DNA from: Candidatus Latescibacterota bacterium
GTDB taxonomy: Bacteria; Latescibacterota; UBA2968; UBA8231
DNA: 64,000 bases
Assembly: GCA_965261395.1 (NCBI GenBank)
Contig: OZ253462.1
Span: 4,608,001-4,672,000, forward strand
Reading direction: 5' to 3'
The position numbers were made by a program, and so were the translations under genes. The notes beneath the pieces were generated by a model. It saw only the letters and a list, made by a program, of their open reading frames with translations, made no database searches and was not told the origin of the DNA. Below are positions 8,138 through 32,315 of this stretch, one piece after another; position 1 is the stretch's first letter; the number at the start of each line of letters is the position of its first letter.

Positions 8138-8246
8138 GACGGTCGTTTCCGTGTCGGTGCAGGACTCATCCCCCCGGCCCCCTTTGCGAGGAGGAAAATT
8201 GTGATAAAACCCTAGCTGATGCGGAAGGGAGTTCGGGGATTAGGTC

Positions 8247-11844: not shown

Positions 11845-13200
11845 TCAGTCCGCATCGACGAATTGACGTGCCAATGATCCCTCTCGCGTCAACGCGTACA
11901 CCACGACATTGACGCCCAAATTATAGACCAATGGCTCCTCGGCACCGACGAGAAACGGGCTGCCGACTTCGTTCTTCGCTACCGACGAATCCCGCTCCTG
12001 CTTGGCGACTCCCGCCCAGTAATCGGCATAGCCGCGCATCGAATACACCCCCACCAACTGCTCCCCTACCATGATGCCCTCCAAATAGTCCGGGGTTCGT
12101 GGCGGTCGGTCTTGTCCAGAACTAAACATAGATTCTATATCGCGTATCCCGAGCGGCAGGCTGTTTACATCGTAGAAGCAATGATAGATCGGATGGGTTA
12201 GCTCTAGGCGTTTAAACTGCCAGTCCTTCCATTCTTGATAGCCCTCCGCTTGAAAGCTGGCGCGAATGAGGGAACGCACCGCTGGAACGTCTAATTCGGC
12301 GTCCCTATAATTCACATTGGACCACAAAAGGCGGACAATATCCACAAAAAGGAAGCCGCCGCCGGTCAAATACGCCCCAAAATTGGCCGCCTCGCTGTCC
12401 GTGAACTCAAAGGGGGTATTGACGGTCATGAGAACGAAGGGGACTTGCAAAAGCTGCGGATCGTCGAGCCGAACCGCGTCGCGTACTTCGACGTGGACTT
12501 GCGTACTGGCGACCATCTTATCGGCCAACCCTTGCAGCATCCGCCGTTCCACCAAGCGGCGCGGCATCTGGTGATGCCAGCGCACTCGTATGTTTTCAGC
12601 CTGTTCACTGTACTCAGCCCGTTCGATGGAAGGGCTGTAGATGCCGGACATATAGAGAAAGCCCTTGAGCTTGCGCCGATCTTTTGGATCGACTACCACC
12701 ATCGCCCGGTGCCGACCCGTGTCCATCGCCTGCACATCCATCAACTCCAAGGCCAAATCAATCTCGTCCGCGCCCTGCCGCGTCCCTTCCAACGCCCCAA
12801 CGCGCAGGTGCGGGCCAATATGCCGAGCGGGGAAATCCGGCACGGGCAGCGCCAGCCGATCCGGCAGCGACGCCGTCGGCAGCCGAAGAGCCGAGGTCTT
12901 AAAGACCGGCAGCGGACGCGACGCCGACGGAGCCGGCCGCATGGCCACGACCGGGGCGGCTTGGAGCGCCGGACGGCGCACTAAGGGACGCTGCATGGGG
13001 CGTTGCCGGCGGGTGAGAGTGCGCTGTGGCGGCGGCCGTTTGGTAAACTTCACCATGATCGGCAGTAGGACGGGGAATTGCGTAACCCGCTCGCGGTGCG
13101 TGATCCCGAAAATCACCAGCAGATGCAAGGCCAACGACAACGCCAAGCAGCTTTGCAGTTTTCTATTTTTTTGGAACGGTACTTTCCAAGGTCGTCTCAT
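11845..13200 (-). CDS. Membrane-anchored DUF4159-domain protein
   Basis: N-terminal TM (SLALHLLVI), Pro/Arg linker, YLTGGGFLFVD, HPIYHCFYD, LGVNVVVYALT. Confidence 0.75.
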   Translation of the reverse strand: MRRPWKVPFQKNRKLQSCLALSLALHLLVIFGITHRERVTQFPVLLPIMVKFTKRPPPQRTLTRRQRPMQRPLVRRPALQAAPVVAMRPAPSASRPLPVFKTSALRLPTASLPDRLALPVPDFPARHIGPHLRVGALEGTRQGADEIDLALELMDVQAMDTGRHRAMVVVDPKDRRKLKGFLYMSGIYSPSIERAEYSEQAENIRVRWHHQMPRRLVERRMLQGLADKMVASTQVHVEVRDAVRLDDPQLLQVPFVLMTVNTPFEFTDSEAANFGAYLTGGGFLFVDIVRLLWSNVNYRDAELDVPAVRSLIRASFQAEGYQEWKDWQFKRLELTHPIYHCFYDVNSLPLGIRDIESMFSSGQDRPPRTPDYLEGIMVGEQLVGVYSMRGYADYWAGVAKQERDSSVAKNEVGSPFLVGAEEPLVYNLGVNVVVYALTREGSLARQFVDAD

Positions 13201-14276
13201 CTGCTCAGGTCCCTCCGCAAAGGATGGAAATCGAGCATTGACGCACGTTCCGCCATTTCGTCGCTCGAGATGGTCTGATTCGTTTCGTGAAATGCCATCA
13301 GGCTATGGAGGCGCATCTCCTCTGGTATTAAGGGGTCCGGCCATATAGAAGCAAACCAAAATTCGATTAGATACAGTCGAAGATCCTCATTCTTTTCCAC
13401 CATGTGGGCTATAGACCTACGCCGTTTTTGCGATTCCGCAAACGCATTTTGTGGGCTGAAAAAGTCGTGGTGATGATACAGGTGATAGCTCTGCGCCTTG
13501 GCGGCAAAGCGCATTTTATACCCATTCTGCATGAGGCGATAGGCCAAATCCCATCCTTCAGAATGGGGCAGCTCTTCGTCAAATCCACCGACCTCCTCAA
13601 GAGCGACACGCGGGGCCGAAGCATTATGTGGATAAAAACTGATCCAACCTATCGGCGAGTCGGGCACTTGGTCAGAGAGTACTTGTACTTGGTCTTGCAT
13701 TAATTTTAATTCTGGGAAGGGATACCCGCCCTCTCGGGCTAACGGGGCGATCGCATCAAAATCAGACTGTATCATAGCTTCGGTCACCCGAAATTCGTCT
13801 GGGTACGTACGCATAATATGAGCAACCGATGCTGGAACGTCCTCCCAAGGAAGGCCACTGCGCGGGTCCTGGACGTACTCCAAACGAGGCAAGCAATACT
13901 GGAATCCGCTCGTTACGCCGTTGTAGCGCTGAAATAGTTGCCAATGTTGAGCCAACCAATCGGGACCCGGTAGCGCGTCTCCGTCCAAGAAGGCGATCAA
14001 ATCTCCCCGCGCTTCCGCTATACCGATATTCCGCGCTCGGCAGCGTCCTACATTGGTATTCAAGGGAATGACTTTTACGGGAATTTGCTCATACGTACGC
14101 AGAAAATTCCCTGTTCCGTCCGTGCTGCCATCGTCCACCACGATAACCTCAAACGGGCCTTCAGAGAATGTTTGAACGGCCAAGCCGCTTAAAACGAGCC
14201 GCAACCGATCGCGCTGATTGTGTGCGGCGATGACGACAGAAATATCCATTGAGCTAGCTCCCTTATATACATTCAA
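13197..14276 (-). CDS. Glycosyltransferase family 2
   Basis: ISVVIAAHN, VVDDGSTD, ARNIG, FLDGD, GGFDE..EGWDL. Confidence 0.9.
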   Translation of the reverse strand: MNVYKGASSMDISVVIAAHNQRDRLRLVLSGLAVQTFSEGPFEVIVVDDGSTDGTGNFLRTYEQIPVKVIPLNTNVGRCRARNIGIAEARGDLIAFLDGDALPGPDWLAQHWQLFQRYNGVTSGFQYCLPRLEYVQDPRSGLPWEDVPASVAHIMRTYPDEFRVTEAMIQSDFDAIAPLAREGGYPFPELKLMQDQVQVLSDQVPDSPIGWISFYPHNASAPRVALEEVGGFDEELPHSEGWDLAYRLMQNGYKMRFAAKAQSYHLYHHHDFFSPQNAFAESQKRRRSIAHMVEKNEDLRLYLIEFWFASIWPDPLIPEEMRLHSLMAFHETNQTISSDEMAERASMLDFHPLRRDLSR

Positions 14277-16749
14277 AGACCAAGCGGCATTCCTCTCTCA
14301 GAGAATCCGGCCGATGTATACGATGTATACGAGGAATGCCATTACCCGTCTCTTCGTACACAACGGCTTGTAGCACCTCCTTGGCAGCAGAGTTTGAGCA
14401 TACGATGTGGAAGCAGTCCAAATGGCCAAAGAAAAAGTCAAAATAGGGATCGCTATTCTCCAAGACCTTATGACGTAATGCCTCATTTTGCACATTGGCC
14501 TCCGTTAGTGCTGGAGTACCAATACTGATACCGTGAAATTCCACGGGGATCCATCCGAGATCCGAGATGAAGATCTCAGCCCACGTGTGCCCAAATACCA
14601 CTTCATCATACGTTCGGTTCTCGTACCTGCTCGGCCCTAGAGGATTGACCGCTATGGCTCCGGCTTGCTCGCGAGCTGGTATTTTTAGCAGGCGACAAAG
14701 GGCAGTGAAGGCACGAGCCAACGTAATACAATGTCCGCCGTCGTCCGCTAGTGCTTTTAGGGTGCTACACCGATAGCATTGGCAGCTATCTTTGGTTTTC
14801 TTGAAATGCTTGTTTTTGGCCAAATGGTAGTATAACGAACGGGCTTTTTCTAAATCGCTCGATTCTCCGTCTATATTCACATCCTCCCAACAACTGCAGA
14901 CGAGTGGATGTTCTGCCAAGGATTCATCAACAGTAGTATAGAGCTCAAACTCTTCGGGTGTGAGCACCTCTGTTGCTCGACCCATCGCTCTCGCATAAAC
15001 CGTCAATTCGCACACGTAAGAAAACGTATATGCCTCGCCGGAGCTAAAATCACAAACAGCAGGATAGCCATAGAAAAAACCCGAATGCGGCAAAAAGTGG
15101 CTCTGGATTTCCGTAGGATAGCAAGATAGCAGTTTTATATCCTTCTGAAAGTCGGTGGTTATTGGGTAGGGCAGAAATATCCGCACATTATGTGTTGTAT
15201 CCTCGGTAGCAGATAGAGTGAAGGTATAAGTCAGCCGCAAGCGCTGACTCTCCATAGCGGGATGAAGCGCACCATTTTTTTTGTTAATGAAGAACGAACG
15301 CATCTCCTCACGCGCCTCGTAATCACACGCAAAAAAGCGAGCGTCGTTGTCGTAGAGCCAGTTCCACGAATCAAGGCGATCGTACCATATCCCGTCTTGT
15401 TTCACTTCATGCGGCATCTGGCTATTTTGCCCGTTTTCGAGCATCTCTTCAATTTGCTCGTCATTGAGCACCGTGCTCAACGACAACTGCCGGGCAAAGT
15501 CGCGTTGGCTCATCTGGTAATACGGATCGAGCCGGCCTTCTTCAGTGCGACTCATCCAGTACCCATCAATTACATCTGCGACGCGATTCGCGTCCTGCCA
15601 TTCTCGTATATCGGCAGCAAAAGCACGGCATCGTCTAGCGAATATCGCATAGTGGTTTAACAGCCCCTCGATACTTTGGACGAGAGCCGTCGGTCGGGTG
15701 AAGTCTCGGTAGCTCAATTTGATACCTAGCCCTAGTGCTTGCAGGCGGTCGATAAAATACTCTTGAGTAAAATTCGTGGGAAGCCCAATGACTGGTATTC
15801 CCTTGAACAGAGCTTGGTAGAAGAAACCGTGATCCCCGCCGCCAGCAAAGACAGCCGCTTGGGAGGCGGCCTGCCGCAAAAAACTCGGATCGACGATCTC
15901 GCAGTTTTCTATTGGGTCGATACGCACTCCAACAGGTGGAACCACCCACTGCCGAATCCCTTGCATCCCCAGCTTTTGCACGGCCTCTTGAATAAAGGGC
16001 CAATCGGCCCCCAGCGTTCTGAGATCCCAGTACACCCCCTCCCGCTCCACATCGCCTTGCTCCTCTGCATCAAGCCCCTCAAGCAGCGGTCCTACAAAGG
16101 AGTAGTTGGCAGGCGTCTCCTGTCCCAGTGGATGAACCGCTGGAATATCGCAGAGCAGATACATTTCCCCGAATGTCGTCCCATAAGTCCATTCTCGATG
16201 TGAAGCACGTTCGATTATGTCCTCCCAAGTACGCACAAACTCAGGCGAGAGAATAGGGCAAGAGTATTCGGGTATGTTATATGCCGACGTTATCCAAACC
16301 ACATCAAGCCCTTCCAGTGCCGCAGCCAAGCGCAGCGTGGGACGGGAATCTACGATAGCGAGGTCAGGCTTCAGGCGGGCAATCAACGCTCGCTCGGCTT
16401 CCACGCTCTGATGGATGAACGAATCGTAGTCCGCCTCATTCGTTCCAAAATCCAGTACTGCTCCCAAGTCTTGTATCGGCGTGGCGAGGTCGTGCAGCGG
16501 GAAATCCTCTTGCCGGATTTGGTCGGCAAACGAGCCAGTGCCAGCAAAATCGACGCTGTATCCTCGGCGACGGAGCGTCGTACCCACCACCAAAGAACGA
16601 TGCGCGGAAACGCTATCAAAGCCGTGAAAAAAGATCAGTATTGAAACTCTGTCCCGACCTAGACGACGCGAGCGTTCTTTTTCCTCAAGACGTCTGATGA
16701 CCTTGAAGAGCCTAGCTACGGTCCGCTGCCGTATTGCGTTGAACATCAT
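14263..16749 (-). CDS. GT-B (GT1/GT28-like) glycosyltransferase fused to transglutaminase-like domain
   Basis: N-terminal LRRRGYSVDFAG ... GGGDHGFFYQALFKGIPVIGLP..TQE; C-terminal GHCITLARAF...HTWAEIF...GWIPVE. Confidence 0.75.
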   Translation of the reverse strand: MMFNAIRQRTVARLFKVIRRLEEKERSRRLGRDRVSILIFFHGFDSVSAHRSLVVGTTLRRRGYSVDFAGTGSFADQIRQEDFPLHDLATPIQDLGAVLDFGTNEADYDSFIHQSVEAERALIARLKPDLAIVDSRPTLRLAAALEGLDVVWITSAYNIPEYSCPILSPEFVRTWEDIIERASHREWTYGTTFGEMYLLCDIPAVHPLGQETPANYSFVGPLLEGLDAEEQGDVEREGVYWDLRTLGADWPFIQEAVQKLGMQGIRQWVVPPVGVRIDPIENCEIVDPSFLRQAASQAAVFAGGGDHGFFYQALFKGIPVIGLPTNFTQEYFIDRLQALGLGIKLSYRDFTRPTALVQSIEGLLNHYAIFARRCRAFAADIREWQDANRVADVIDGYWMSRTEEGRLDPYYQMSQRDFARQLSLSTVLNDEQIEEMLENGQNSQMPHEVKQDGIWYDRLDSWNWLYDNDARFFACDYEAREEMRSFFINKKNGALHPAMESQRLRLTYTFTLSATEDTTHNVRIFLPYPITTDFQKDIKLLSCYPTEIQSHFLPHSGFFYGYPAVCDFSSGEAYTFSYVCELTVYARAMGRATEVLTPEEFELYTTVDESLAEHPLVCSCWEDVNIDGESSDLEKARSLYYHLAKNKHFKKTKDSCQCYRCSTLKALADDGGHCITLARAFTALCRLLKIPAREQAGAIAVNPLGPSRYENRTYDEVVFGHTWAEIFISDLGWIPVEFHGISIGTPALTEANVQNEALRHKVLENSDPYFDFFFGHLDCFHIVCSNSAAKEVLQAVVYEETGNGIPRIHRIHRPDSLREECRLVFECI

Positions 16750-16757
16750 TTTGTCCT

Positions 16758-17963
16758 TTACATTCGGCCGCTCGTCCTCAGCAGCTCTTCTACGAACTCA
16801 ACCTTGTCGTCTAGCTGAAGTTCGCGGTATAATTCCAGCGCTTGCCGCCACTGAAGTAAGGCATCAAAAGGAGCCTGATTCGACGCATAGATCCTCCCCA
16901 AGCTGACTCTAACGTCGGCCACGGCTTCCAAGTCCGATACTTTCTCAAACAGTTGCACCGCCTGCCGATATGCCTCCTCAGCCGCATTAAAGTTTTCAAC
17001 GTCCATATAGGCATCACCCAAAAGAGCCGCTTGTACCGCCCGACCTTTGTTGTCCCCAATCGCGTCAAATAGCTCCCTAGCCTGCTGGAACAACGCCGCG
17101 GCTTCTCGCGTGTCACCTTTCTCCCGTAGCACCTGCCCAAGACCGCCCATGGTGCGAGCCTCAAACTGTCTATTGCCTAATTTTTGTTGAATGGCCAGCG
17201 TCCGACGGTACATGGCTTCCGCCTCATCAAACCGACCCGTCTGGCTATATACGCCTCCCAGAACGCTGTAATGATGAGCCAACCCCTCGTCTCGCTGGAG
17301 CCGCTCCTCAATCGCAATGCCTTTTTTGAGGATGTCTTCGGCCTCGGCCAAACGCTTCTGCCCGAGATAGACTAGACCCAAGCCCTGATAGTGGCCAGAA
17401 ATACCCGGCAGATCGCCGAGTTCTTGGCAAACGTTCAGGCCCTGCTGGAAGTAGGCTTCGGCTTCTTCTGGTTTGTTCTGCTGGAGCACCAACTGCCCCA
17501 AGTTGCCGCATTCTTCAGCCCAATAGGCCCTATTTCCCGACGCCTCGTGGAGTTGCTGAGCGCGGGTGTGCAGTTCTTGCGCTTCTCCGATTTTTCCTTG
17601 GAGATGGGCGACAAAGCCTCTATTGCTATAGTTGACGGCCAGACGCTCCTCATCTCGGCGTTCACTATTGATCTCAAAGGCTGTATTGAGATAGTCAACC
17701 GCCTTATCCATCCGCCCCTTGACTTGGTACATAAGTCCCAAGCCGCTACACGCATCTGCTTCCAACTCATGTTCCTGTAACTGCCGTGCTTGCGCAAGGG
17801 CTCTTTGATACAATGCTTCAGCCTTGTCGAGTTCACCTTGTTCCTTGTGATAACGGCCCAAAAGGAGACAAGCCTTCGCTTGGGTGTGTAGATCGCGATC
17901 TTGTGCGACACGCGCACGCTGTATCGCTACGTCGCGTTCGGAAATTAACGGAATGATTTCCAT
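16758..17963 (-). CDS. Cytoplasmic TPR-repeat protein
   Basis: ~9 TPR/MalT-like 40-aa repeats, no signal peptide. Confidence 0.85.
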   Translation of the reverse strand: MEIIPLISERDVAIQRARVAQDRDLHTQAKACLLLGRYHKEQGELDKAEALYQRALAQARQLQEHELEADACSGLGLMYQVKGRMDKAVDYLNTAFEINSERRDEERLAVNYSNRGFVAHLQGKIGEAQELHTRAQQLHEASGNRAYWAEECGNLGQLVLQQNKPEEAEAYFQQGLNVCQELGDLPGISGHYQGLGLVYLGQKRLAEAEDILKKGIAIEERLQRDEGLAHHYSVLGGVYSQTGRFDEAEAMYRRTLAIQQKLGNRQFEARTMGGLGQVLREKGDTREAAALFQQARELFDAIGDNKGRAVQAALLGDAYMDVENFNAAEEAYRQAVQLFEKVSDLEAVADVRVSLGRIYASNQAPFDALLQWRQALELYRELQLDDKVEFVEELLRTSGRM

Positions 17964-17984
17964 ACCTCGCAGTGCCCTCCCCGG

Positions 17985-18515
17985 TTATAACTTTTGCACT
18001 GCTTCCCATACCGGAGGCATCCCTCGTGCAAAAGAGGAAATGGTCCCCTCCTCGCTCACCACGTAAAACTGCGGTACGCCCCCGATCTTATAAGCTTGTG
18101 CAACCGCACCCGCCGAATCGACCAAAACGGGTATCGTTAGGTCATGTTTTTCGACGATTTGCTGCACTTCGTCCTTAGTACCTCGGCTGACCAGTAGCAA
18201 ACGACTCTCTTTGGGAAGGTCGTACTCTACCAAGTAACTTTCCAAGTCATTGCAATACGGGCAGGTAGGGGTTACAAAAATCAGCCCTATCCGCTGCCCC
18301 TTAAAGCTGCTGAGACTGACGTTACCTCCTTGCACAGAGGGCAATTCAAAATCAGGGGCGTCCGTTCCTTCAGACAGAGGCTCAGAACGCGTCGTATCCC
18401 CCTCGCTCCAGACGACCCCCGCTGGTTCCTCAGACTTCTCCTTGAAAATCAGCACGAGCAACAAGACCACACTAACAAGCCCGGCGATCTTCCAATGCTT
18501 TTGATCGGCCATCAT
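17985..18515 (-). CDS. Membrane-anchored TlpA/AhpC-TSA family redoxin (CPYC)
   Basis: N-terminal TM, APDFEL, TPTCPYC, GVP cis-Pro loop. Confidence 0.85.
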   Translation of the reverse strand: MMADQKHWKIAGLVSVVLLLVLIFKEKSEEPAGVVWSEGDTTRSEPLSEGTDAPDFELPSVQGGNVSLSSFKGQRIGLIFVTPTCPYCNDLESYLVEYDLPKESRLLLVSRGTKDEVQQIVEKHDLTIPVLVDSAGAVAQAYKIGGVPQFYVVSEEGTISSFARGMPPVWEAVQKL

Positions 18516-19066
18516 TCGGTCCTCTCTTTTTCAATTACTTTTTGCGCGGATTGCACAATGTTCTCAATCGGGAAGCCTCCGCCCCTAACGGCCTCGACGA
18601 TCTTTTGTTCCCTATCCACCAAGAGCACGGTCGGGAAATTCGTGATGTTGAGATGCTCCATCGTCAGTAACAGCGTATCTACGACAATGGGAAAAGCCAA
18701 GCCATGCTCGGTGACTTTTTCCATCAATCCTTCCCGGGTGTTGGAAACCATCAGGATGGGAATATCTGTAGCCGCTTTCCCTATAATGGGGTACATGGTA
18801 TCACAGGCATCACAGCCCGGCAACGTAAAGACCAGTAGGTGGGATTCGCCCTTGTACAGATGGGTAGAGATCAGGCCGCCATCTAACTGTTCGAGTTCGT
18901 ATTCCGGGACGAGCTCCCCAAGCAGATGATCCAAACCTGTATCCATTAGGACGATTGTAGGATTGTTGATTTTTGTGGCTAACAATATACTGGTCCCCAA
19001 GAGGATGCCCAGCACCGTCGAAAGGAACAGCATCGCCACTGGCGGTTTTGGACGCACATCTTCCAT
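18512..19066 (-). CDS. Membrane-anchored thioredoxin-like redoxin (CDAC), MauD/TlpA-like
   Basis: N-terminal TM, PGCDAC, NFPT cis-Pro loop. Confidence 0.8.
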   Translation of the reverse strand: MEDVRPKPPVAMLFLSTVLGILLGTSILLATKINNPTIVLMDTGLDHLLGELVPEYELEQLDGGLISTHLYKGESHLLVFTLPGCDACDTMYPIIGKAATDIPILMVSNTREGLMEKVTEHGLAFPIVVDTLLLTMEHLNITNFPTVLLVDREQKIVEAVRGGGFPIENIVQSAQKVIEKERTE

Positions 19067-19084
19067 CGCGTATCTTTCCTTTCC

Positions 19085-20242
19085 CTAAAACGCATCGAAC
19101 AACGGCTGAATCCACCTATTGGCTGGCCGGACGATACTGCCTGCCCATATCAGAGTTAGGCTGACGCCAACCATCAAGGCCGGCGCAAAGGGGAGCGATA
19201 GTTCAATCTCTAACTGATCGTCCCATTCACGGAATAATCCCTTTTTTTCTAAGTCTTTTAATCGGCGCACTTTCCCGATGGTCAACGGCTTGCCCGTTCG
19301 GCCTATTAGCTCCCCCGCATCTCTACCCTGCCCGCCGAACGGAACTACTTCGACTCGGCCTTCCTCGGAGGCTTCATAAATCGACTGGTGTAGCACCATG
19401 CCCGGCTGTAAGGCATCGATAGAGACCGGCTGCACAAACTTCTGGTATTCGAGAGAATGGATATACACATAGACGTTCCGTATGCCCCACAGCACGGCCC
19501 AAAGCACTAGATAGATCAGGTAATCCCCGGTGCTGATGGCACTGAAGACACCTATTACAAGCCCGGGAACGACCAAGATGATTCTATTGGGTGCCTTGGT
19601 CAGATCTTCATGGATCAAATAGAGCACAGCCCCCACCACGATAGCCTCAGCAAGGGTCAACGTCCCGCCGACCAGCGTCGTCCCACCTAACACCAGCCCG
19701 CTCAGTCCTGCTGCCTCAACCCCAGAGCGCAACCATCCCCAACTCATGCCCTTTCTATGCTCACTTGCAGAGGTCTCGATGGGTTTTGCGGGTTTATGAA
19801 TGACCATAAGGACTATAAGAAAAACGGTATTGGTCAAAATGGTGTTGACCAACAAGGCCCAAAGAGGAGTATCCAGCGCAAAGAAGGCTAAGGAGAACGT
19901 CGGCCACTTCGGACCAAACAACGTACTCGGTATAGCCGCGACCATGGCCCAATACAGCTTAGCATCCCCCGCCCCCCAAAAGCCATACATAAACAACAGG
20001 TAGCCTACGGCAAAGCCCAGCAGAAAGGATAGGCCGATCTGTACGAGTGTAACCTCGCCCAATACCCACAACCCAATCTGCCCTATCAGCCCAAGACCGA
20101 GCAAAATCCAAGTAGCCGAGTTGGGAATCTCTCTATGGCTGAGGTCCGTATAGGTGGTGTAGGAGGCAACAACCATGATCGAGCACAACAGACCCCATTC
20201 TAACAAGAAGACGGGATCCATCTCATTCAGCAACATATCCAT
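19085..20242 (-). CDS. A24 family prepilin/preflagellin-type aspartic peptidase
   Basis: Polytopic membrane protein; YTDLSHREIPN and GAGDAKL catalytic Asp motifs; C-terminal LPFAPAL. Confidence 0.85.
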   Translation of the reverse strand: MDMLLNEMDPVFLLEWGLLCSIMVVASYTTYTDLSHREIPNSATWILLGLGLIGQIGLWVLGEVTLVQIGLSFLLGFAVGYLLFMYGFWGAGDAKLYWAMVAAIPSTLFGPKWPTFSLAFFALDTPLWALLVNTILTNTVFLIVLMVIHKPAKPIETSASEHRKGMSWGWLRSGVEAAGLSGLVLGGTTLVGGTLTLAEAIVVGAVLYLIHEDLTKAPNRIILVVPGLVIGVFSAISTGDYLIYLVLWAVLWGIRNVYVYIHSLEYQKFVQPVSIDALQPGMVLHQSIYEASEEGRVEVVPFGGQGRDAGELIGRTGKPLTIGKVRRLKDLEKKGLFREWDDQLEIELSLPFAPALMVGVSLTLIWAGSIVRPANRWIQPLFDAF

Positions 20243-20255
20243 AGCCCAATACTCC

Positions 20256-20846
20256 TCAAAAAGCGGTTCCCTTGGACTCCGCTAGCCAACTTCCCGCTTG
20301 GCTCCATTGAGTCACTAAGGCATTCACGGACAGGGTTGCCCCTGTTATTCCATCGATATCCCGGCCTACAACTAAAGGCTCAGAGAGTGCTCGCCCGATC
20401 AGTTGGGCAAAGAAGGCGGTCGGATCGAAGCGGCCGTCGGCAAGCTCCCAAGATGCCAAGGGCAAAACGCCCGCAACGCGGTCTTCTCCTGGTGCTAAGA
20501 GTATCCCGACCAGTAAATCGCGACAGGTAGGACAGGCAATATCGTGGCGGACGACGACTAGCTTGTAGGCCAACGCTTCGTCCTCCGTAACAACGCGATA
20601 GGCTGATAACACACCAGAACGCGGCGCAGGCACGGCCTGATACACTTCTTTTAGGTGGAGAGAACTCGCTGTGGAATCAAACGCGGCGAGACCGCGCAGC
20701 ACAACTTCTTTAGGCGGAATGGACGGCAGGGGCGATTCGGGGCTGAGGCCCTTTTCATACAGGCCAATAAGCATAATGATCGCAGGTATTAGTAGCAGGA
20801 TTAAACCAGAGTAAATCCAGTATAATGGATGCTTAGGCTGTCCCAT
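20256..20846 (-). CDS. Membrane-anchored FMN-binding (flavinylation motif) protein with CxxC
   Basis: N-terminal TM, IACPTC, DGITGATLS. Confidence 0.75.
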   Translation of the reverse strand: MGQPKHPLYWIYSGLILLLIPAIIMLIGLYEKGLSPESPLPSIPPKEVVLRGLAAFDSTASSLHLKEVYQAVPAPRSGVLSAYRVVTEDEALAYKLVVVRHDIACPTCRDLLVGILLAPGEDRVAGVLPLASWELADGRFDPTAFFAQLIGRALSEPLVVGRDIDGITGATLSVNALVTQWSQAGSWLAESKGTAF

Positions 20847-20892
20847 GCCGTCTTATCCTCGTTCGAGTCAAATAGCTCAAAAGAATGTCCTC

Positions 20893-21744
20893 TTAGGGCA
20901 ACTTCGTCGTCTTCTTGGCTTCTATTTGTCCGTCCACCTCAACCTTATAGATATACACCCCGGCGGCCACCGCCTTGCCCGCCTCGTCGCGGCCATTCCA
21001 CACAAACCGATGACGGCCCGCCCCCAGCGGCCCGTCCCACAACTGCCGCACCCGATGCCCCAACACGTCGTAGAGCGCCAAGTGAACCCGCTCCTCGTCG
21101 GTCGCCAAGTCGAGGGGAATGATCATCTGGGGATTAAACGGATTGGGATAGCTTGCGCCCAGCCGATGCTGTGCCGGTCGGCCCGCGATCTCTGAGGTCA
21201 GCACCGCGGTCATCTGATCCTGCTCGGACTCCGAACAAGGAGTGGAGGAGCACTTACAAGATCCTTGCCAATAAATGTCGCCGTCCGCGCCATAGTAAGT
21301 GGTGCAGTACCGGTATGGCTCGGTTGAGTTAAACTCCGCGCAATCGTCGAAGTAGCTGCACTCAATCTTCGTATTGATCCGCTCGAGGCACATATCGGCA
21401 TCCGACACGGTGGGCGCGACCTCCTGCTCGGACTCCGAACAAGGGGTAGAGGCGTACCAGCAATTTGCTATGTAGAGGTTGCAGTACGCGTCCAAGCCAT
21501 AGGCGCAGTAGAGGTATTTATCTTGCGGATCCGCCTGCTGTGCGCCACAATCGAAACTGGGGTTGGAGCTACAGCCGATCCAAGTGGACCCGGTCCCACA
21601 CGACACCCTATCGTCTTCGGCGGCAACTTCTCTCGCGCCGAGCAGGACCACAAGCCCCGCAAGGGCACTTACGACCCACCCCAGCCTCTGCCGCATCGGG
21701 GCCAAGTCACTGGACGAGCCAGTGCATTCACGCAACCTGTTCAT
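20893..21744 (-). CDS. Cys-rich repeat protein with conserved leader and C-terminal FlgD-Ig/T9SS-like domain
   Basis: RBS AAGGAGG before ATG 21744; leader MNRLRECTGSSSDLAPMRQRLGW...AREVAA; 14 Cys after leader; SYPNPFNP...AGVYIY tail. Confidence 0.8.
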   Translation of the reverse strand: MNRLRECTGSSSDLAPMRQRLGWVVSALAGLVVLLGAREVAAEDDRVSCGTGSTWIGCSSNPSFDCGAQQADPQDKYLYCAYGLDAYCNLYIANCWYASTPCSESEQEVAPTVSDADMCLERINTKIECSYFDDCAEFNSTEPYRYCTTYYGADGDIYWQGSCKCSSTPCSESEQDQMTAVLTSEIAGRPAQHRLGASYPNPFNPQMIIPLDLATDEERVHLALYDVLGHRVRQLWDGPLGAGRHRFVWNGRDEAGKAVAAGVYIYKVEVDGQIEAKKTTKLP

Positions 21745-21805
21745 CTCTTTGCCTCCTTCGTGGCAGTACGCCCGCGGCTTGGTGCCGCTACGGTCCTGGA
21801 AGACC

Positions 21806-22798
21806 TCAAGGCAGCTTCGTCGTCTTTTTCGCTTCCACCTGCCCGTCAATTTCGACCTTATAGATATACACCCCGGCGGCCACGTCTTTGCCTACCTCGT
21901 CGCGGCCATCCCAAGTAAAACGATGACTGCCCGCCTGAAGCGGCCCGTCCCACAACTGCCGCACCCGATGACCCAACACGTCGTATACGGCCAACGACAC
22001 CCCCGCTGCGTCCTTGGCCAAATCAAGAGGGAGCACGACCGCCGGATTGAACGGATTGGGGTAGCTGTCGCCGAGCCCATGCTGCGCCAGTCGGCCTACC
22101 GCCGCTGGCGTCAGCACCGCGGTCATCTGCGCCGACTCGGCCTCCGAACAGGGGGTGGAGGAGCAGTCGCAATTTCTCAAATAAATGTCGCCGCGCGCGT
22201 CATAGTACGTGGTGCAGTGCCGATACGGCTCGGTCGAGTTAAACTCCGCGCAATCGTCGAAGTAGCTGCACTCTGTTTCTTGGTTGAAGCAACCATCGGT
22301 CGGCCCGGCGATCTCGGTCAGCTGCTCTACCTCCGAACAGGGCGTGGAGGAGCACTCACAAAATTCTCGAAAATAAATGTCGCCGCGGGCGTCATAATAC
22401 GTGGTGCAGTGCCGATACGGCTCGGTCGAGTTAGACTCCGCGCACCCGCTGTGGTGGCTGCACTCAATTTTTCGGGTCAGCACGATGGGCGCGGTCGGCT
22501 GCTCGGACTCCAAACAAGGCGTGGAGGAGTACCAGCAATCTACTATGTAGAAGGTGCAGTCCGCGTCCAAACCATAGGTGCAGTAGCGATATACCCCCTT
22601 CGGCTCCGCCAGCGCACAATCCGCGCTAGGGCTGCACGCGGTCCAAGTGTACGGGCACTTAGTGTCGGCTTCGGCTTCCGCGGTCCCGAGCAGAACCACA
22701 AGCCCGGCAAGGGCACGGACGATCCACCCGAGTCCCAGCCCCTGCCGCATCGGAGCCAAGCCACTGGACGAGCCGATAAATTCACACAATCTGTTCAT
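21806..22798 (-). CDS. Cys-rich repeat protein with conserved leader and C-terminal FlgD-Ig/T9SS-like domain
   Basis: Leader MNRLCEFIGSSSGLAPMRQGLGLGW...AEAEA; 20 Cys after leader in three units ending SSTPC; YPNPFNP tail. Confidence 0.85.
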   Translation of the reverse strand: MNRLCEFIGSSSGLAPMRQGLGLGWIVRALAGLVVLLGTAEAEADTKCPYTWTACSPSADCALAEPKGVYRYCTYGLDADCTFYIVDCWYSSTPCLESEQPTAPIVLTRKIECSHHSGCAESNSTEPYRHCTTYYDARGDIYFREFCECSSTPCSEVEQLTEIAGPTDGCFNQETECSYFDDCAEFNSTEPYRHCTTYYDARGDIYLRNCDCSSTPCSEAESAQMTAVLTPAAVGRLAQHGLGDSYPNPFNPAVVLPLDLAKDAAGVSLAVYDVLGHRVRQLWDGPLQAGSHRFTWDGRDEVGKDVAAGVYIYKVEIDGQVEAKKTTKLP

Positions 22799-22899
22799 CT
22801 CTTGCCTCCTTCGTTGCCCAGTATTCCTGCGGCCCGGTGGCTATGGTACTGAGCAAGGGCCGGTACGAGTGCGTAAGGCCGCATAGACTCATCCTCCCC

Positions 22900-25083: not shown

Positions 25084-25195
25084 GATATCACAGAATCCTT
25101 TCCAACAGGTAAAACTCTGACAGACAGCGTACTATCCGTTAAAAAAAGAAAAGGGGGATGTGAAAGCTGCTTGGCGATTCTTGGGAGACCCGACG

Positions 25196-25348
25196 GGGGT
25201 TTTAAAACCAATACGGTTTAGTTAAGCACTATGTAAACGATGAAACGGGTGCCAAATAGATCGGCATTACACGAGTTATCCATCAGAATCTAGTGCTGCT
25301 ATCCGTGGCTATCAGCCGCTAACTAAACCGTATTAATTTTAAGACAGC
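25196..25348. mobile_element. Putative MITE / IS remnant
   Basis: Perfect 15-bp inverted repeat AATACGGTTTAGTTA (25210-25224 / 25320-25334), extending imperfectly to ~30 bp; no ORF inside. Confidence 0.5.
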
Positions 25349-25351
25349 CTC

Positions 25352-25633
25352 TTAGCAAGCGCAGCAGTACCAAGCAGAGCACTGGATAGAACAATTCGAA
25401 TCCAGCCGACAGTCCCTACACTTGCACTTCTGTCCCCCGCCCGTGGCCTCGTCGCAACCTGAGCTAGACACCGGACCCTCTCTCCATGAGGTATCGTCGC
25501 AGGCAGCAGCTTCTCGCGCCCCGAGCAGGACGGCGACCCCCGTGAGGGCACTGATGACCCAACCCAACCCCAACCCCTGCCGAGCCGGAGCCAAACCGCT
25601 CGAGGACGTGAAAAATTCCCGAATATTGTCCAT
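25352..25633 (-). CDS. Cys-rich precursor-like peptide B (10 Cys in core)
   Basis: RBS AAGGAG; 44-aa conserved leader then CDDTSWREG...WYCCAC; paralog of 25779..26060. Confidence 0.85.
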   Translation of the reverse strand: MDNIREFFTSSSGLAPARQGLGLGWVISALTGVAVLLGAREAAACDDTSWREGPVSSSGCDEATGGGQKCKCRDCRLDSNCSIQCSAWYCCAC

Positions 25634-25680
25634 CTTATTTTACTCCTTTATTCTTTGCCGACTATCCGTGAAGTAAGAAG

Positions 25681-25721
25681 GGAAAAGGGGGCCGGCTTAA
25701 TCGCTACGATTAAACCGGCCC
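25681..25721 (-). terminator. Rho-independent terminator-like hairpin between the two peptide genes
   Basis: Minus RNA GGGCCGGUUUAAUCG-UAG-CGAUUAAGCCGGCCC then CCUUUU; fully paired (one G-U) on this strand. Confidence 0.65.
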
Positions 25722-25778
25722 TTTACACCTTAGCAAGAGAAACGGCTCTACAGCAGCTAAGGTTGTCTCAGACATTCT

Positions 25779-26060
25779 TCAAACGCAGCAGTAGTTCCCT
25801 CCACACCTTGTCACGCAGTTCGAGTCCAGCCAACAGTCCTGACACATCTTCGGCAATCTCCCGTTCGTAGCCTCGTCGCAACCTGCGTTGTACCCCTTAT
25901 CCCTTGTCCAGCGTCTTTCGTCGCAATCGGCAGCAGCTTCTCGCGCCCCGAGCAGGATCGCGACCCCCGCGAGAGCACTGATGACCCACCCGAGCCCCAA
26001 CCCCTGCCGAGCCGGAGCCAAACCGCTCGACGAGCCGATAAATTCCCGTAACATAGTCAT
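25779..26060 (-). CDS. Cys-rich precursor-like peptide A (8 Cys in core)
   Basis: RBS GAGGGG; leader MTMLREFIGSSSGLAPARQGLGLGW...AREAAA then DCDERRW...NYCCV. Confidence 0.85.
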   Translation of the reverse strand: MTMLREFIGSSSGLAPARQGLGLGWVISALAGVAILLGAREAAADCDERRWTRDKGYNAGCDEATNGRLPKMCQDCWLDSNCVTRCGGNYCCV

Positions 26061-26198
26061 GATTCATCCCCTCTTAGTAGCCCAGTACGCTCGCAACACG
26101 TTGTTGCTTTGGTACTGGAGTGAGTGTTGAGCAACGACCGATACGACTTCGTATCACCTCCTTTCTTCTGCATCGGCCTCGCCTTCAACGAGGATATA

Positions 26199-26214
26199 TG
26201 CAAGTTTCTTGCCA
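26199..26214 (-). promoter_or_regulatory. sigma54 -24/-12 promoter
   Basis: TGGCAAGAAACTTGCA vs consensus TGGCACGNNNNTTGCW, exact spacing, between a sigma54 activator and peptide A. Confidence 0.85.
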
Positions 26215-26335
26215 AAGATCAGGACCTATACAAAAAATCCTTTAGGATGAACCTAAAGGATTGAAAAACATGATACTTAAAATTATGGGACGGGTCTTTC
26301 TATGACACGCGGCCTCGCCATCGGCGCAAGGCTTT

Positions 26336-26393
26336 CCACGATTTTTCCGTGGATTTACACGGCTTTTTCGTGGATTTACACGACTTTCGTTGG
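26336..26393. promoter_or_regulatory. Putative upstream activator sequences (three phased palindromes)
   Basis: CACG-N7-CGTG at 26337 and 26358, degenerate third at 26379; 21-bp period. Confidence 0.65.
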
Positions 26394-26428
26394 CCGTTGG
26401 TCGCCTGTATAAGCGCTTGCGTCCTGCG

Positions 26429-29400
26429 CTACTTCTTCGGGCGTCGTACCCCGTATTTCTGCATGCGGTAACGCAGCTTCTCCGGGTGCATACCCAACAA
26501 CGCGGCGGCACCATGCACACCATAGATCCTCCAGTGGGTCGCTTGCAGGGCCGCTAGGATTTGCTGCTTTTCGTCCACCTCTTCGACCGGCGGCGCTTCG
26601 TCCGCGTCCCCGGTTCGTCGTTCAGTCGGCGGGTGCTCCCCATCCCCGGCGGGCGGCGCAACCGACGGCAACGACACATCCTCCACCCGCATGACGCCAT
26701 CTTCGCACAGCAAGACCGCGCGGTGGATCAAGTGCTCTAACTCCCGCACATTCCCCGGCCAAGCATACCCCTGCAAGTGCGCGACCACCCCCTCGTCTAG
26801 CGTCGGCACCGACCGCTTTAGGTCTTGGGCGAACCGCGCCACAAAATACGCCGTCAAAGTCGGTATATCCTCTCGCCGCTGCCGCAGCGGCGGAAGCGCT
26901 AGCGTGAAGACGCTCAGACGGTAGAACAGGTCTTCGCGGAACGTGCCCTCCTGTACATCCTGCCGCAGATCGCGGTTGGTCGCCGCCACCACCCGCACCT
27001 CCACGGTTACAGGATGCTCGCCACCGACGCGGGTCAGGGTCTTCTCCTCTAAAATGTGCAGCAGCACCCGCTGGGCTTCTAACGGCAAATCGCCGACTTC
27101 GTCCAGAAAGAGGGTGCCGCCATCGGCTAGTTCAAAGCGCCCGAGCTGGCGGGTGTCTGCCCCGGTAAAGGCCCCTTTCTCGTGGCCAAACAGCTCGCTT
27201 TCGACCAGCCCGGCGGGCAGCGCCCCGCAATTAACTTGGATAAAGGGCCGCTTGCGGCGGGTGCTTGTTTCGTGGACGGTCCGAGCGAGCAAACCCTTGC
27301 CGGTGCCGGTCTCGCCCAGCACCAGCACATTCATATCGGTCTCGGCTACCCGCGAGACCTGTCTCATTACCTCGTGCATGACTCGACTGTGGCTCTGCGC
27401 CATATGGTCAATAGGCCGGAGTGTCCTTTCGAGGGCGTCGATGCGCTCGGTTTTGGCGTCGGGGAGGACCTGAATCTTCAAGCCGACTACCCCGGACCTC
27501 AGGCCATCCCGGTCTATGGTCTGCACCTCAAAGCGGTAGTCACCCACCGGCAAGGCGTTATACGCCACTACATTGGCGGTGGTGAACGCGCTCCACTGTT
27601 CTGCTGGGCCGTAGCCTAACAGGCGGTGGCTATAGCGCATCAGCTTCGCGCCGGTGCGGAAGCTGATACCTTGGAAGCGAACGCGAATTTCCGGGGTGTG
27701 CTCTATACAGGATACGGCTTCGGGCGCAGCAAAGAGGCTCCCGGCCATCACCTCGCGGATCACCAAGCACGGAGACGTGTCGCCGGGCTGGTAGGCGACC
27801 AGTCCGGCCCGCGTCCCAAACCACAGTTGGCCATGGCGGTCGCATTGGATAGCCTCGACTACGTTTCCGAGAGCAGATGGTCCTAAGCGGATGCTTTGAA
27901 AGGTCTGGCCGTCGTAGCGGATCACTCCCCCGCCGCTGGTCCCGATCCAAACATTGCCCTGCCGGTCGGCCGCCAGCGCCAAGATGCCATTGGCCACCAG
28001 CCCGGAATTATTGGCGGTAAAGTGGCCCACCTGCCCCGACGAGCGGTCGAGGATGAAAAGCCCCTTAGCCGTACCTATCCACAAGGTATTTTGATACTCC
28101 CACAAGACATTGACATAGGCGATGGTCTCCGCCTCGGCCATATCCACCGGGCGAAATTGACCGTCTTTGTACCAATAGAGCGCCGGTATTCTTGCGTAGA
28201 AACCAATCCAGAATACCCCGTTTTGGTCTTGCAGCAAGGAACGACACTCGTCGCCTGCCCACTCGTCGAAGGGGATGAAGCGATTGGCTTCTATCCAGCC
28301 GAAGTGGCCCTGGAGCGTGCCAATCCATATACGCCCTTGCTGATCTGTGCACAGCCCGGTGATTTTTTCGGCGTGGGTCTCTTCAGTCACCGTGATCACT
28401 TGCGGCGTTTGGCCCCCCCACTTGTACACCCGGCCGGTGTCCCCACCACTCCAAACCTGCCCCTCTTCATCCACCACCATCGCCGAAACGGTTTCATCCG
28501 TATTGAGCGGACAGATTTGGCCCTCTTCCATATAGGCCATACCGCCCATCGTGCCGATCCACATCCGTCCCCCATGGTCTTCTCCCAAATGGCAAATCTC
28601 GCGGTCGGGCAGGCCGTCGGCTTCCGTGTAGCACCGGATGCTGGCCGGATCGCAAAAAATCAGCCCGCCGCCCCAAAGCCCGATCCAGATATTGCCCTCG
28701 CGGTCCTCGTAGGTCAGGCGCGTACCCGAAAAGTCTGCATCCGGCAGGGAGACGGAAAAATGATGCCACTCTTGATCATTGTGTACAACCACCCCTCGGC
28801 GTGCCAGCCAGAGTCGGTCCCCATCGTCAGCCCGCACGTGCCGCACCCCGTTCTGCGTGCCCCTATCGGTCTTATGGCCCACATGGATGAATGCAAACTG
28901 CTCGTCTCGCGGATCGTAGCGGCCAATAAAGGTTTCGGGGGCCGTGTACAGGAAGGCGATCCACAGATGGCCGGAAGAGGTTTGGGCGAATTTCCAAGGA
29001 TGTTGAATCGCCTCCTCGTCAATACCCATGCACCGCCCATCTAAGCTGATGATGCCTCGGTCCCACGTCGCCAGCCAGGTAGTACCCGCCGCGTCGGTGG
29101 CCATATCGTACACCCGCCCCAAAGGTTGGCCGCCAACTTCGGTTATGAGCTTTGTGCAGCGATCTTGGGCAAACCAAGCCACGCCCGCGCCAGTCAACGC
29201 CACAATCGAACCATCCGGCTGGACTTGCAAACCCATGATCTCGTTGGAAGGCAGGCCGTGCTCAGTGGTGTACACCTGAAAGCCGCGCCCGTCATAGGCG
29301 GCAATCCCCCCGCCGAACGTGCCGAACAGCAGCCGCCCGTCGGCTTCCTCGGCAATGGCCATGACCGTCAGATTGGGCAGGCCGTCTTTGAGGCCAAAGT

Positions 29401-29563
29401 TATCAAAATGGGCGCTGTCGAACCGGCTGACGCCGCCGTCGGCCGTGGCGATCCAGAGAAAGCCCTGGCGGTCTTGGTAGATGTCTTCCACGTGCATCCC
29501 AGCCAGCCCATCAAAGACCGTGTACTGGCTGCTCAACACGTGCTCAAAGGATATGTCGCTCAT
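26429..29563 (-). CDS. sigma54 enhancer-binding protein with N-terminal beta-propeller (Reg_prop/Y_Y_Y) sensor
   Basis: Repeated D..G.LWIGT.GG blades, Y_Y_Y-like region, GETGTGK, GAFTGA, LFLDE, WPGNVREL, C-terminal HTH. Confidence 0.9.
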   Translation of the reverse strand: MSDISFEHVLSSQYTVFDGLAGMHVEDIYQDRQGFLWIATADGGVSRFDSAHFDNFGLKDGLPNLTVMAIAEEADGRLLFGTFGGGIAAYDGRGFQVYTTEHGLPSNEIMGLQVQPDGSIVALTGAGVAWFAQDRCTKLITEVGGQPLGRVYDMATDAAGTTWLATWDRGIISLDGRCMGIDEEAIQHPWKFAQTSSGHLWIAFLYTAPETFIGRYDPRDEQFAFIHVGHKTDRGTQNGVRHVRADDGDRLWLARRGVVVHNDQEWHHFSVSLPDADFSGTRLTYEDREGNIWIGLWGGGLIFCDPASIRCYTEADGLPDREICHLGEDHGGRMWIGTMGGMAYMEEGQICPLNTDETVSAMVVDEEGQVWSGGDTGRVYKWGGQTPQVITVTEETHAEKITGLCTDQQGRIWIGTLQGHFGWIEANRFIPFDEWAGDECRSLLQDQNGVFWIGFYARIPALYWYKDGQFRPVDMAEAETIAYVNVLWEYQNTLWIGTAKGLFILDRSSGQVGHFTANNSGLVANGILALAADRQGNVWIGTSGGGVIRYDGQTFQSIRLGPSALGNVVEAIQCDRHGQLWFGTRAGLVAYQPGDTSPCLVIREVMAGSLFAAPEAVSCIEHTPEIRVRFQGISFRTGAKLMRYSHRLLGYGPAEQWSAFTTANVVAYNALPVGDYRFEVQTIDRDGLRSGVVGLKIQVLPDAKTERIDALERTLRPIDHMAQSHSRVMHEVMRQVSRVAETDMNVLVLGETGTGKGLLARTVHETSTRRKRPFIQVNCGALPAGLVESELFGHEKGAFTGADTRQLGRFELADGGTLFLDEVGDLPLEAQRVLLHILEEKTLTRVGGEHPVTVEVRVVAATNRDLRQDVQEGTFREDLFYRLSVFTLALPPLRQRREDIPTLTAYFVARFAQDLKRSVPTLDEGVVAHLQGYAWPGNVRELEHLIHRAVLLCEDGVMRVEDVSLPSVAPPAGDGEHPPTERRTGDADEAPPVEEVDEKQQILAALQATHWRIYGVHGAAALLGMHPEKLRYRMQKYGVRRPKK

Positions 29564-29731: not shown

Positions 29732-29760
29732 TTGACAAGGATACACCGCTAAGCTAGCAT
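29732..29760 (+). promoter_or_regulatory. Putative sigma70 promoter
   Basis: TTGACA-N17-TAGCAT. Confidence 0.45.
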
Positions 29761-29773
29761 GTACATACCCAAC

Positions 29774-32299: not shown

Positions 32300-32315
32300 A
32301 GCGAAAGAAGCTCTT

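Follow-up and report, generated by a model that had tools for sequence, protein, structure and literature searches.

A Latescibacterota gene cluster that may produce secreted disulfide-rich peptides with an A24 peptidase and a flavin-linked CxxC protein

The sublancin cluster, sunA-sunT-bdbA-sunS-bdbB, brings together in one operon a leader-bearing Cys-rich precursor, a family 2 glycosyltransferase (GT2), and two dedicated extracytoplasmic thiol-disulfide oxidoreductases, and the DsbB-like BdbB is its membrane disulfide-generating partner. Families with a conserved leader and a hypervariable core include class II bacteriocins, the Nif11/NHLP precursors of ribosomally synthesized and post-translationally modified peptides (RiPPs), and the conotoxin superfamilies. 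For the A24 prepilin/preflagellin peptidases PilD, FlaK, and PibD, the nearest precedent of a non-pilin substrate is provided by archaeal sugar-binding proteins processed by PibD, which still depend on a PilB/PilC-like system. Here we describe a gene cluster of Candidatus Latescibacterota bacterium that resembles each of these systems in part. The window, that is, the whole stretch of DNA analyzed, comprises 64,000 nucleotides (positions 4,608,001–4,672,000 of contig OZ253462.1, assembly GCA_965261395.1), and coordinates refer to it except where another locus or the whole genome is named.

The minus strand of 13197–29563 carries 13 genes, all in one direction, followed by a gene for a DUF4159 protein, with which the array occupies 11845–29563 (open reading frame (ORF) calls; Table 1). 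Domains were assigned by Pfam and NCBIfam scans of the cluster proteins. An earlier note on this DNA had listed, in order, a propeller/AAA+ activator, a sigma-54 promoter, two Cys-rich peptides, an FG-GAP protein, two Cys-repeat proteins with the same leader, a protein with a flavin mononucleotide (FMN) motif and a CxxC motif, an A24 peptidase, two redoxins, a TPR protein, a GT-B/transglutaminase fusion, and a GT2; each of these elements is found on the minus strand by ORF and domain evidence. The genes abut or overlap as the note described (for example, at 14263–14276 and 18512–18515), and the enzyme genes are indeed lower in GC content (0.50–0.54 over 13–21 kb vs. 0.60–0.67 in the flanks). 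The DUF4159 gene is found again within homologous clusters or at their end and probably extends the cluster past the end that the note had set at 13197. Judging from sequence and gene neighborhood, we consider it probable (roughly 0.6) that the cluster is a dedicated production line, switched on by the sigma-54 activator, whose products are small secreted peptides rich in disulfides and surface proteins composed of tandem copies of the same Cys modules.

The two small precursors, peptides A and B, share a 44-residue N-terminal leader with both Cys-repeat proteins, and this leader is confined to these four proteins in the organism's own genome (one contig, 6.55 Mb). A genome-wide search with peptide A recovers only the four cluster genes (E ≤ 3e-11), and those that come next, at E = 0.14 and 0.32 and with stop codons, are noise. 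Neither the peptides nor the leader match any Pfam or NCBIfam model, and the best matches of peptide A in the ESM Atlas (0.83 and 0.81) belong to unnamed clusters and lie below the level of a lead. In an alignment of 22 diverged leaders, the F, S, S, and G of an F-x-x-S-x-S-G motif are invariant or nearly so; this motif is followed by about six residues, G-[LF]-x-x-[GA]-W, a hydrophobic stretch, and A-x-A (small-x-small) before the first Cys, so that the second part of the leader, with its hydrophobic stretch and A-x-A, resembles a Sec signal peptide. Among 1.84 billion proteins, a leader profile detects 157 representatives at E ≤ 1e-3, of which 35 also pass E ≤ 1e-10. The best 150 of these have a median length of 101 aa, and 144 are 140 aa or shorter; the leader is followed by eight Cys in 63 peptides, six in 24, and ten in 16, and some of the other members among the 150 are visibly truncated or frameshifted. 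The cluster peptides have the leader-plus-core precursor that is expected of a RiPP; the core genes described below would imply only disulfides and proteolysis, and RiPP status reaches no further than this.

The gene set recurs elsewhere as three diverged types with differing gene orders. Type-1 loci are 75–90% identical and have the gene order of the window, and type-2 loci are 34–48% identical, with the genes arranged as activator–A24–FMN protein–redoxin–redoxin–peptide–FG-GAP–GT1/transglutaminase–GT2–TPR. In type-3 loci, the A24 peptidase is 28–34% identical, and it is kept together with the FMN protein, the redoxins, and leader peptides; no glycosyltransferase (GT) module, FG-GAP gene, or activator is found within the fetched flanks. 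The A24 peptidase, the FMN protein with its CxxC motif, and the redoxins travel with the leader peptides across types and gene orders. Within 10 kb of the 32 full-length A24 genes labeled Latescibacterota or Gemmatimonadota, at least one redoxin is encoded in 30 cases and the FMN protein in 24; a leader ORF is present in 28, and two of the remaining four cases are contig ends. The A24 subfamily occurs in 32/168 genomes of the phylum and leaders in 38/168, and all 32 A24 genomes have leaders. We reject a chance neighborhood, given that these families are found together in three different gene orders.

The core thus consists of leader peptides, the A24 peptidase, an RnfG/NqrC-like FMN protein with an invariant CxxC, and two membrane-anchored thioredoxin-fold proteins. 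Accessory components, limited to types 1 and 2, are the GT1-transglutaminase fusion, GT2, TPR protein, FG-GAP partner, and sigma-54 activator. Leaders are far more conserved than cores: the mean pairwise identity is 0.78 for the leader vs. 0.31 for the core in type 1 (21 distinct peptides), and 0.89 vs. 0.34 in type 2 (12 peptides). In this respect, and in having several precursors per genome (up to 20 leader hits), the family is like the class II bacteriocin, Nif11/NHLP, and conotoxin families, from which it differs in a leader motif that matches no Pfam or NCBIfam model and in its processing enzymes. The 20 leader hits are found in a closed genome (G018), where they are spread over at least six regions, several of which are peptide–FG-GAP cassettes remote from enzyme genes (L080, L081). 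Outside the phylum, two loci, L065 (9818–13948) and L066 (11184–15655), pair an A24 relative with leader-bearing Cys-rich peptides.

The A24 peptidase has the catalytic residues D33 and, in the motif G-x-G-D-A/G-K, D93, both of which are invariant in an alignment of ten diverged homologues. It is the sole PF01478 match in its own single-contig genome, which has no match to the assembly ATPase family PF00437 (T2SSE) or the platform protein family PF00482 (T2SSF), each of which is matched in 13 of 14 control genomes. Among the 32 A24-bearing genomes, a T2SSE match above the cut-off is found in four (G005, G008, G019, G146). We reject a pilus-peptidase role for the cluster A24 on account of the missing ATPase and platform genes. 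The match to FlaK_Arch is weak (E = 2.2e-7, far below the cut-off), the distant relatives of the protein are archaeal, and a comparison of its sequence with solved structures gave nothing meaningful (E = 0.095, to an unrelated protein). Since the N-region of the leader is kept even in type-3 loci, which have no GT, TPR, or activator genes, and since A24 is the sole core component with a cytoplasmic side, the simplest inference is that A24 recognizes the N-region. Cleavage would then occur either after the nearly invariant S-x-S-G or after the less conserved basic-x-G before the hydrophobic stretch. The cluster peptidase and PilD, FlaK, and PibD belong to the same family, with both catalytic Asp residues and a Gly, presumed to be residue −1, ahead of a hydrophobic segment, whereas the genome here lacks filament machinery, the substrates would be Cys-rich peptides, and the leader differs from class III signals in its length (25–40 residues), its own F-x-x-S-x-S-G motif, and the A-x-A site downstream.

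The redox module combines the 196-aa FMN protein with the two thioredoxin-fold proteins (redoxins). The FMN protein matches FMN_bind below the cut-off (E = 0.015). Its AlphaFold (AF2) model, with a predicted local distance difference test (pLDDT) score of 81, consists of an N-terminal helix and a domain, and the best fold matches are RnfG (7zc6_G, E = 6.6e-4; 9eri_G) and NqrC chains. All 27 distinct homologues carry the motif R-[HY]-D-I-x-C-x-x-C-x-D, and 26 of them carry the flavinylation motif D-G-[IL]-[ST]-G-A-T. The window's DGITGATLS motif agrees with [S/T]GA[S/T], the ApbE flavinylation site as given in the available text of PMC8238504. One ApbE is encoded in the organism's own genome, about 1 Mb away, and at 12873–13964 of the type-3 locus L078 (G089), an ApbE gene directly adjoins an FMN protein–redoxin–redoxin–A24–leader peptide array. 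A profile search detects 151 homologue clusters of the FMN protein, all of about 200 aa, and the few that are named are called "hypothetical" or "FMN-binding protein." The redoxins have sub-threshold matches to MauD and ResA.

This module resembles ApbE-flavinylated RnfG/NqrC proteins and the hybrid clusters with DsbD, DUF3570, or thioredoxin-like proteins (PMC8238504, available text) in its N-terminal anchor, fold, [S/T]GA[S/T] motif, and thioredoxin-like partners. It differs in the invariant CxxC within the FMN domain and in its ties to a peptidase and peptide precursors, and no Rnf/Nqr subunits, DsbD, or DUF3570 are encoded nearby. Together, the three proteins could form a thiol-disulfide relay that includes a flavin-CxxC center, with a role as oxidant, as isomerase support, or as reductant. 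An analogy with QSOX/Erv, DsbA–DsbB, and MauD–MauE is possible, in which electrons would pass from a thioredoxin-fold CxxC to a flavin-adjacent CxxC and then to an acceptor, whereas the FMN protein has no homology to Erv, DsbB, VKOR, or MauE. Neither DsbB nor VKOR is matched in the organism's own genome; a MauE-family gene is present at 3848393–3848791 of the genome (G000:C1; PF07291, E = 3e-16) and is a candidate general disulfide generator. In L065, the place of the FMN protein is taken by a 646-aa fusion of cytochrome c554/c7 and a GILT thiol oxidoreductase, which looks like a heme-based counterpart of the flavin module by non-homologous replacement; this locus also encodes PD40 propeller proteins. 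In the type-3 locus L076, a Mutator-family transposase gene lies between two redoxin genes (8115–9434).

The production line that we propose would operate as follows. The precursor would insert into the inner membrane, where A24, with its active site at the cytoplasmic face, would recognize the conserved N-region and cut after a conserved Gly (in S-x-S-G, or in R/K-x-G before the hydrophobic stretch). Signal peptidase I would then probably cut at A-x-A and release the core, in which the two thioredoxin-fold proteins would form and shuffle three to five disulfides, and the flavinylated CxxC protein would connect this relay to a donor or acceptor of electrons. In types 1 and 2, the precursor may be modified or trimmed ahead of its export by the cytoplasmic GT2, GT1-transglutaminase fusion, and TPR protein, and the FG-GAP protein with its type IX domain, which is paired with each small peptide gene, may bind, carry, or neutralize the peptide. 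As to the role of the product, the pattern of a conserved leader and a hypervariable core leads us to guess at interaction with other cells (antagonism, adhesion, or signaling).

Two other readings, both of which we consider unlikely, give more weight to the accessory genes. The first is that of the earlier note, in which the cluster is a glycocin-like RiPP system: the core would be glycosylated in the cytoplasm by GT2 and/or the GT1 domain and then exported and provided with disulfides, with the transglutaminase-like domain as crosslinker or leader protease. Among leader-guided bacteriocin/RiPP clusters, glycocins are those that this cluster most resembles, and the parallel with sublancin in precursor, GT2, and two thiol-disulfide oxidoreductases stands. 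The GT2, fusion, and TPR genes are conserved together in types 1 and 2 despite rearrangement, and the proteins have no signal peptide, so that any modification would be cytoplasmic. The GT-B half of the fusion is weak by sequence and confirmed by fold search: the N-terminal half resembles the natural-product GT1 enzymes CalG4, GtfD, and OleD (E of about 1e-9 to 1e-10), and the C-terminal half, a β-sandwich with a transglutaminase-like domain in which C674, H721, and E737 are conserved, matches the putative cysteine protease 3isr_A. Precomputed domains of type-2 homologues combine UDPGT, EryCIII-like_C, and Glyco_tran_28_C with Transglut_core, and the fusion is confined to these clusters, its 58 homologue clusters all being type 1 or type 2.

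Several findings speak against glycosylation as the central step. The GT module is found in the flanks of only 14/32 A24 loci and of none of type 3, where leaders, A24, and redox genes are kept; the three genes that the note had included as parts of the system are therefore only accessory, and the family as a whole can do without GT genes. The cluster encodes neither a C39 peptidase nor an ABC exporter: in contrast to glycocins, none of its 14 proteins contains a C39 or ABC domain, no double-glycine site precedes the core, export appears to be Sec-like, the peptidase is an A24, and the place of BdbB is taken by the FMN-domain CxxC protein. The Cys counts are mostly even, which would leave no spare Cys for S-glycosylation. 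Glycosylation and the −17 Da crosslinks considered in the note are accordingly no more than guesses. The 22 solved-structure matches of GT2 are all generic GT-A folds, and none is a named peptide glycosyltransferase (whether SunS/ThuS chains are in the structure set was not checked). The model of the fusion is of moderate quality (pLDDT of 68), and the N-terminal half of its GT-B domain is poorly modeled, residues 130–233 falling below 50.

The second reading, similar in logic to the exosortase or rhombosortase systems, is that leader and A24 are a sorting signal and sorting peptidase for surface proteins of the type IX secretion system (T9SS), with the small peptides as subunits or ligands of the FG-GAP protein. 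C-terminal domains of TIGR04183 are above the cut-off (23 bits) in the FG-GAP protein and in two of the four leader proteins, the Cys-repeat proteins (30.8, 29.7, and 26.9 bits, respectively). Because SprA is present in the genome (SprA_N above the cut-off), these proteins are plausible type IX cargo. All three modules of Cys-repeat protein 1 can be aligned individually with P0070, a free peptide of 96 aa, which indicates that the Cys-repeat proteins are tandem peptide-like modules fused to a type IX domain. In type-1/2 loci, an FG-GAP gene lies within 1.5 kb after 33/35 distinct small peptide genes, and one genome carries duplicated peptide–FG-GAP cassettes at several loci (L080, L081). However, the small peptides of the cluster have no type IX C-terminal sorting domain, 144 of the best 150 family members are small proteins without one, and an FG-GAP or C-terminal-domain partner follows the peptide in 0/14 type-3 cases. 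That the FG-GAP protein carries, displays, binds, or neutralizes its peptide is put forward only as a hypothesis. In the type-3 loci L049 (3745–4680, 8962–9930) and L053 (11714–13634), the peptide and A24 genes have as neighbor a conserved secreted protein (about 300–330 aa, no Pfam match), encoded once or twice per locus, and this protein may be the type-3 counterpart of the FG-GAP partner.

A thiol-based metal or redox-stress system, in which the Cys-rich peptides would bind metals or buffer redox and the redoxins and flavoprotein would keep them reduced, is very improbable. The high Cys content, the usual role of TlpA/ResA-like redoxins as reductants, and the link of FMN-binding domains to iron assimilation (PMC8238504, available text) are compatible with such a system, whereas even Cys counts and hypervariable cores do not suit conserved metal sites, and the domain scan finds no metal transporter or CcdA/DsbD in the cluster. 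Least credible of all is a type IV-like fiber whose class III leader would be cut by A24 at R-x-G, leaving the hydrophobic stretch as core helix with a Cys-rich head: it would account for the A24 family membership, the weak FlaK_Arch match, the archaeal relatives, and the Gly after a basic residue just before the hydrophobic stretch, but the genome has no assembly ATPase or platform protein, 28/32 A24-bearing genomes have no T2SSE match above the cut-off, and a conserved A-x-A follows the short hydrophobic stretch.

Control of the proposed production line by sigma-54, another claim of the earlier note, is supported by a one-mismatch site that is positionally conserved in homologous loci, by the adjacent activator gene, and by the presence of rpoN in the genome. 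The activator, a cytoplasmic protein with no signal peptide or transmembrane segment, consists of a long Reg_prop β-propeller region with a sub-threshold Y_Y_Y match, an AAA+ Sigma54_activat domain, and HTH_8; its orthologues (71–79% identity) flank type-1 and some type-2 clusters. The −24/−12 element TGGCAAGAAACTTGCA has A at the sixth position, where the consensus has C. Homologous elements lie 126–155 nt upstream of the leader start in 8/68 distinct upstream regions of leader genes, all belonging to type-1 small peptides and including orphan peptide–FG-GAP cassettes remote from the enzymes (L080, L081), and looser variants are found at equal distance in several further regions. In 5/8 type-2 loci, a −24/−12 element is located 56–66 nt upstream of the A24 gene. 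The two CGTGTAAATCCACG boxes, about 135–170 bp upstream of the sigma-54 site, are candidate activator-binding sites, and the hairpin directly downstream of peptide A could act as an attenuator and so increase the ratio of precursor to enzymes. Upstream of the FG-GAP gene, at about 25240–25262 of the minus strand, there is a second, partial −24-like element, TTGGCACCCGTTTCAT, in which the −12 TTGC is unmatched.

Several points weigh against the favored reading. By itself, the sigma-54 pattern is not above chance in the window (7 matches vs. 5.3 expected), where exact TGGCAC-N5-TTGC has 0 matches, and a −24/−12 element is found upstream of the A24 gene in 0/14 type-3 or other loci. The surveyed genomes are related and not independent samples, and the co-occurrence counts are not a statistical test. 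Leaders without the enzymes, which the earlier note had named as evidence against a linked system, do occur to some extent: 32/38 leader genomes have an A24 hit and six do not. Among the leader-only genomes, G024 is 75% complete, G011 has only a 42-aa fragment, and G101 has a weak hit, but three others (G022, G027, G029) are closed or nearly closed. In G022, activator genes, Cys-repeat proteins, and DUF4159 are kept but the enzymes are missing, and G027 and G029 each hold one orphan peptide; the leader can thus be retained where the peptidase is absent, as a relic or because Sec together with signal peptidase I is enough. With an A-x-A site present, ordinary signal peptidase could make the releasing cut, which leaves the part played by A24 less certain, and since the charged residue of the R-x-G site is at −3 instead of −2 and there is no Glu at +5, the leader is not a textbook class III signal. 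In addition, MauE is reported as a DsbB substitute in the accessible part of a preprint (10.64898/2026.03.05.709764), and given the MauE homologue in this genome, the flavoprotein need not be the oxidant. Cleavage, disulfides, flavin, and sugar are all predicted from sequence and context. On balance, the data support one functionally linked, conserved system with a specific leader, under the sigma-54 control that the earlier note proposed, and of the note's glycocin-like logic, the Cys-rich precursor, GT2, and redoxins are present, whereas the C39-ABC exporter and double-glycine leader are absent and the GTs are accessory.

Table 1. Features of the cluster region in the order of transcription (window coordinates).
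Feature	Coordinates	Strand	Evidence and remarks
Sigma-54 activator, 1044 aa	26429..29563	-	Reg_prop 1.4e-40, Sigma54_activat 2.7e-69, HTH_8 1.7e-6
Two palindromic CGTGTAAATCCACG copies, 21 bp apart	26347..26383	-	Read directly; both listed among hairpin-like palindromes
Terminator-like hairpin after activator gene	26236..26262	-	Hairpin scan; 11 pairs and T run
Sigma-54 −24/−12 element TGGCAAGAAACTTGCA	26199..26214	-	One mismatch to searched consensus pattern; about 140 nt 5′ of peptide A
Peptide A precursor, 93 aa	25779..26060	-	44-aa leader; 8 Cys in core of about 49 aa
Strongest terminator-like hairpin of the region	25689..25721	-	15 pairs, 9 of them G-C, T-rich tail; directly 3′ of peptide A
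Peptide B precursor, 93 aa	25352..25633	-	Core with 10 Cys
FG-GAP β-propeller protein, 727 aa	22900..25083	-	FG-GAP_3 1.1e-11; TIGR04183 30.8 bits; ordinary signal peptide
Cys-repeat protein 1	21806..22798	-	Cluster leader, three peptide-like Cys modules, T9SS C-terminal domain
Cys-repeat protein 2	20893..21744	-	Cluster leader, Cys modules, T9SS C-terminal domain; leader-bearing start is Met at 21744 (listed ORF begins upstream at TTG 21849)
RnfG/NqrC-like FMN-binding protein, 196 aa, membrane-anchored	20256..20846	-	CPTC, DGITGATLS; no family above threshold
A24 (GxGD aspartyl) peptidase, 385 aa	19085..20242	-	PF01478 36.8 bits (cut-off 26.5); long C-terminal extension
Thioredoxin-fold protein 1 (CDAC), N-terminal membrane anchor	18512..19066	-	CxAC in 26/31 distinct homologues
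Thioredoxin-fold protein 2 (CPYC), N-terminal membrane anchor	17985..18515	-	CPYC in 22/32 distinct homologues
TPR protein, cytoplasmic	16758..17963	-	Pfam; present in type-1/2 loci
GT-B/transglutaminase fusion, 828 aa, cytoplasmic	14263..16749	-	Transglut_core 4.2e-13
GT2 (GT-A) glycosyltransferase, cytoplasmic	13197..14276	-	1.4e-27
DUF4159 protein	11845..13200	-	Pfam; 4-nt overlap with GT2 stop

Divergent from the activator gene, the plus strand of 29759–34906 encodes an SH3_4 protein, an ABC ATPase, two HlyD proteins, and a MacB_PCD/FtsX permease. The same block, 85–93% identical, adjoins the activator in L036, L040, and L041, with a type-1 or a type-2 cluster behind it; the cluster is a variable island of lower GC content at a conserved site. 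MacB-like permeases also come after peptide genes in the type-3 loci L076 and L078. Downstream of the DUF4159 gene, the minus strand encodes an F5/8 type C (discoidin) protein whose C-terminal domain is of the same FlgD_ig type (9886–11541) and then an AAA_22 protein (8247–9824).

The earlier note did not recognize the combination of genes as a described class, and this assessment holds: no Pfam or NCBIfam model covers the peptides or leader, and no description of the system was found in the literature. In particular, none was found for an orphan A24 peptidase joined with a flavinylated CxxC protein, two redoxins, and a new leader, although the supplementary lists of PMC8238504 may include the FMN protein family. 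For class III signals on proteins other than pilins, only reviews of type IV filaments were found. The phylum is described as rich in biosynthetic gene clusters in the available text of PMC9426513. The A24 peptidase and the flavin-bearing redox protein appear to be used in roles that were not described before. More tentatively, the cluster may represent a new export and oxidative-folding pathway, in which A24 would have been recruited from type IV filaments as dedicated processing enzyme for a new N-terminal sorting signal, a covalently flavinylated RnfG-like CxxC domain would re-oxidize or re-reduce the two redoxins in an extracytoplasmic disulfide catalyst not known before, as a bacterial, membrane-anchored functional analogue of QSOX or DsbB, and, in types 1 and 2, each hypervariable peptide would have an FG-GAP protein of its own as carrier for piggy-back type IX secretion.

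If A24 processes the leaders, prepilin-type peptidases would gain a role outside type IV filaments, which bears on their annotation in genomes without pili. If the FMN-CxxC protein drives or edits disulfides, there would be a flavin-based route beside DsbB, VKOR, and MauE, in a gap flagged by recent work on oxidative folding. The at least 157 representative clusters of compact peptides with three to five disulfides and a portable leader are candidate stable scaffolds, and possibly antimicrobials or adhesion ligands, from an uncultured phylum.

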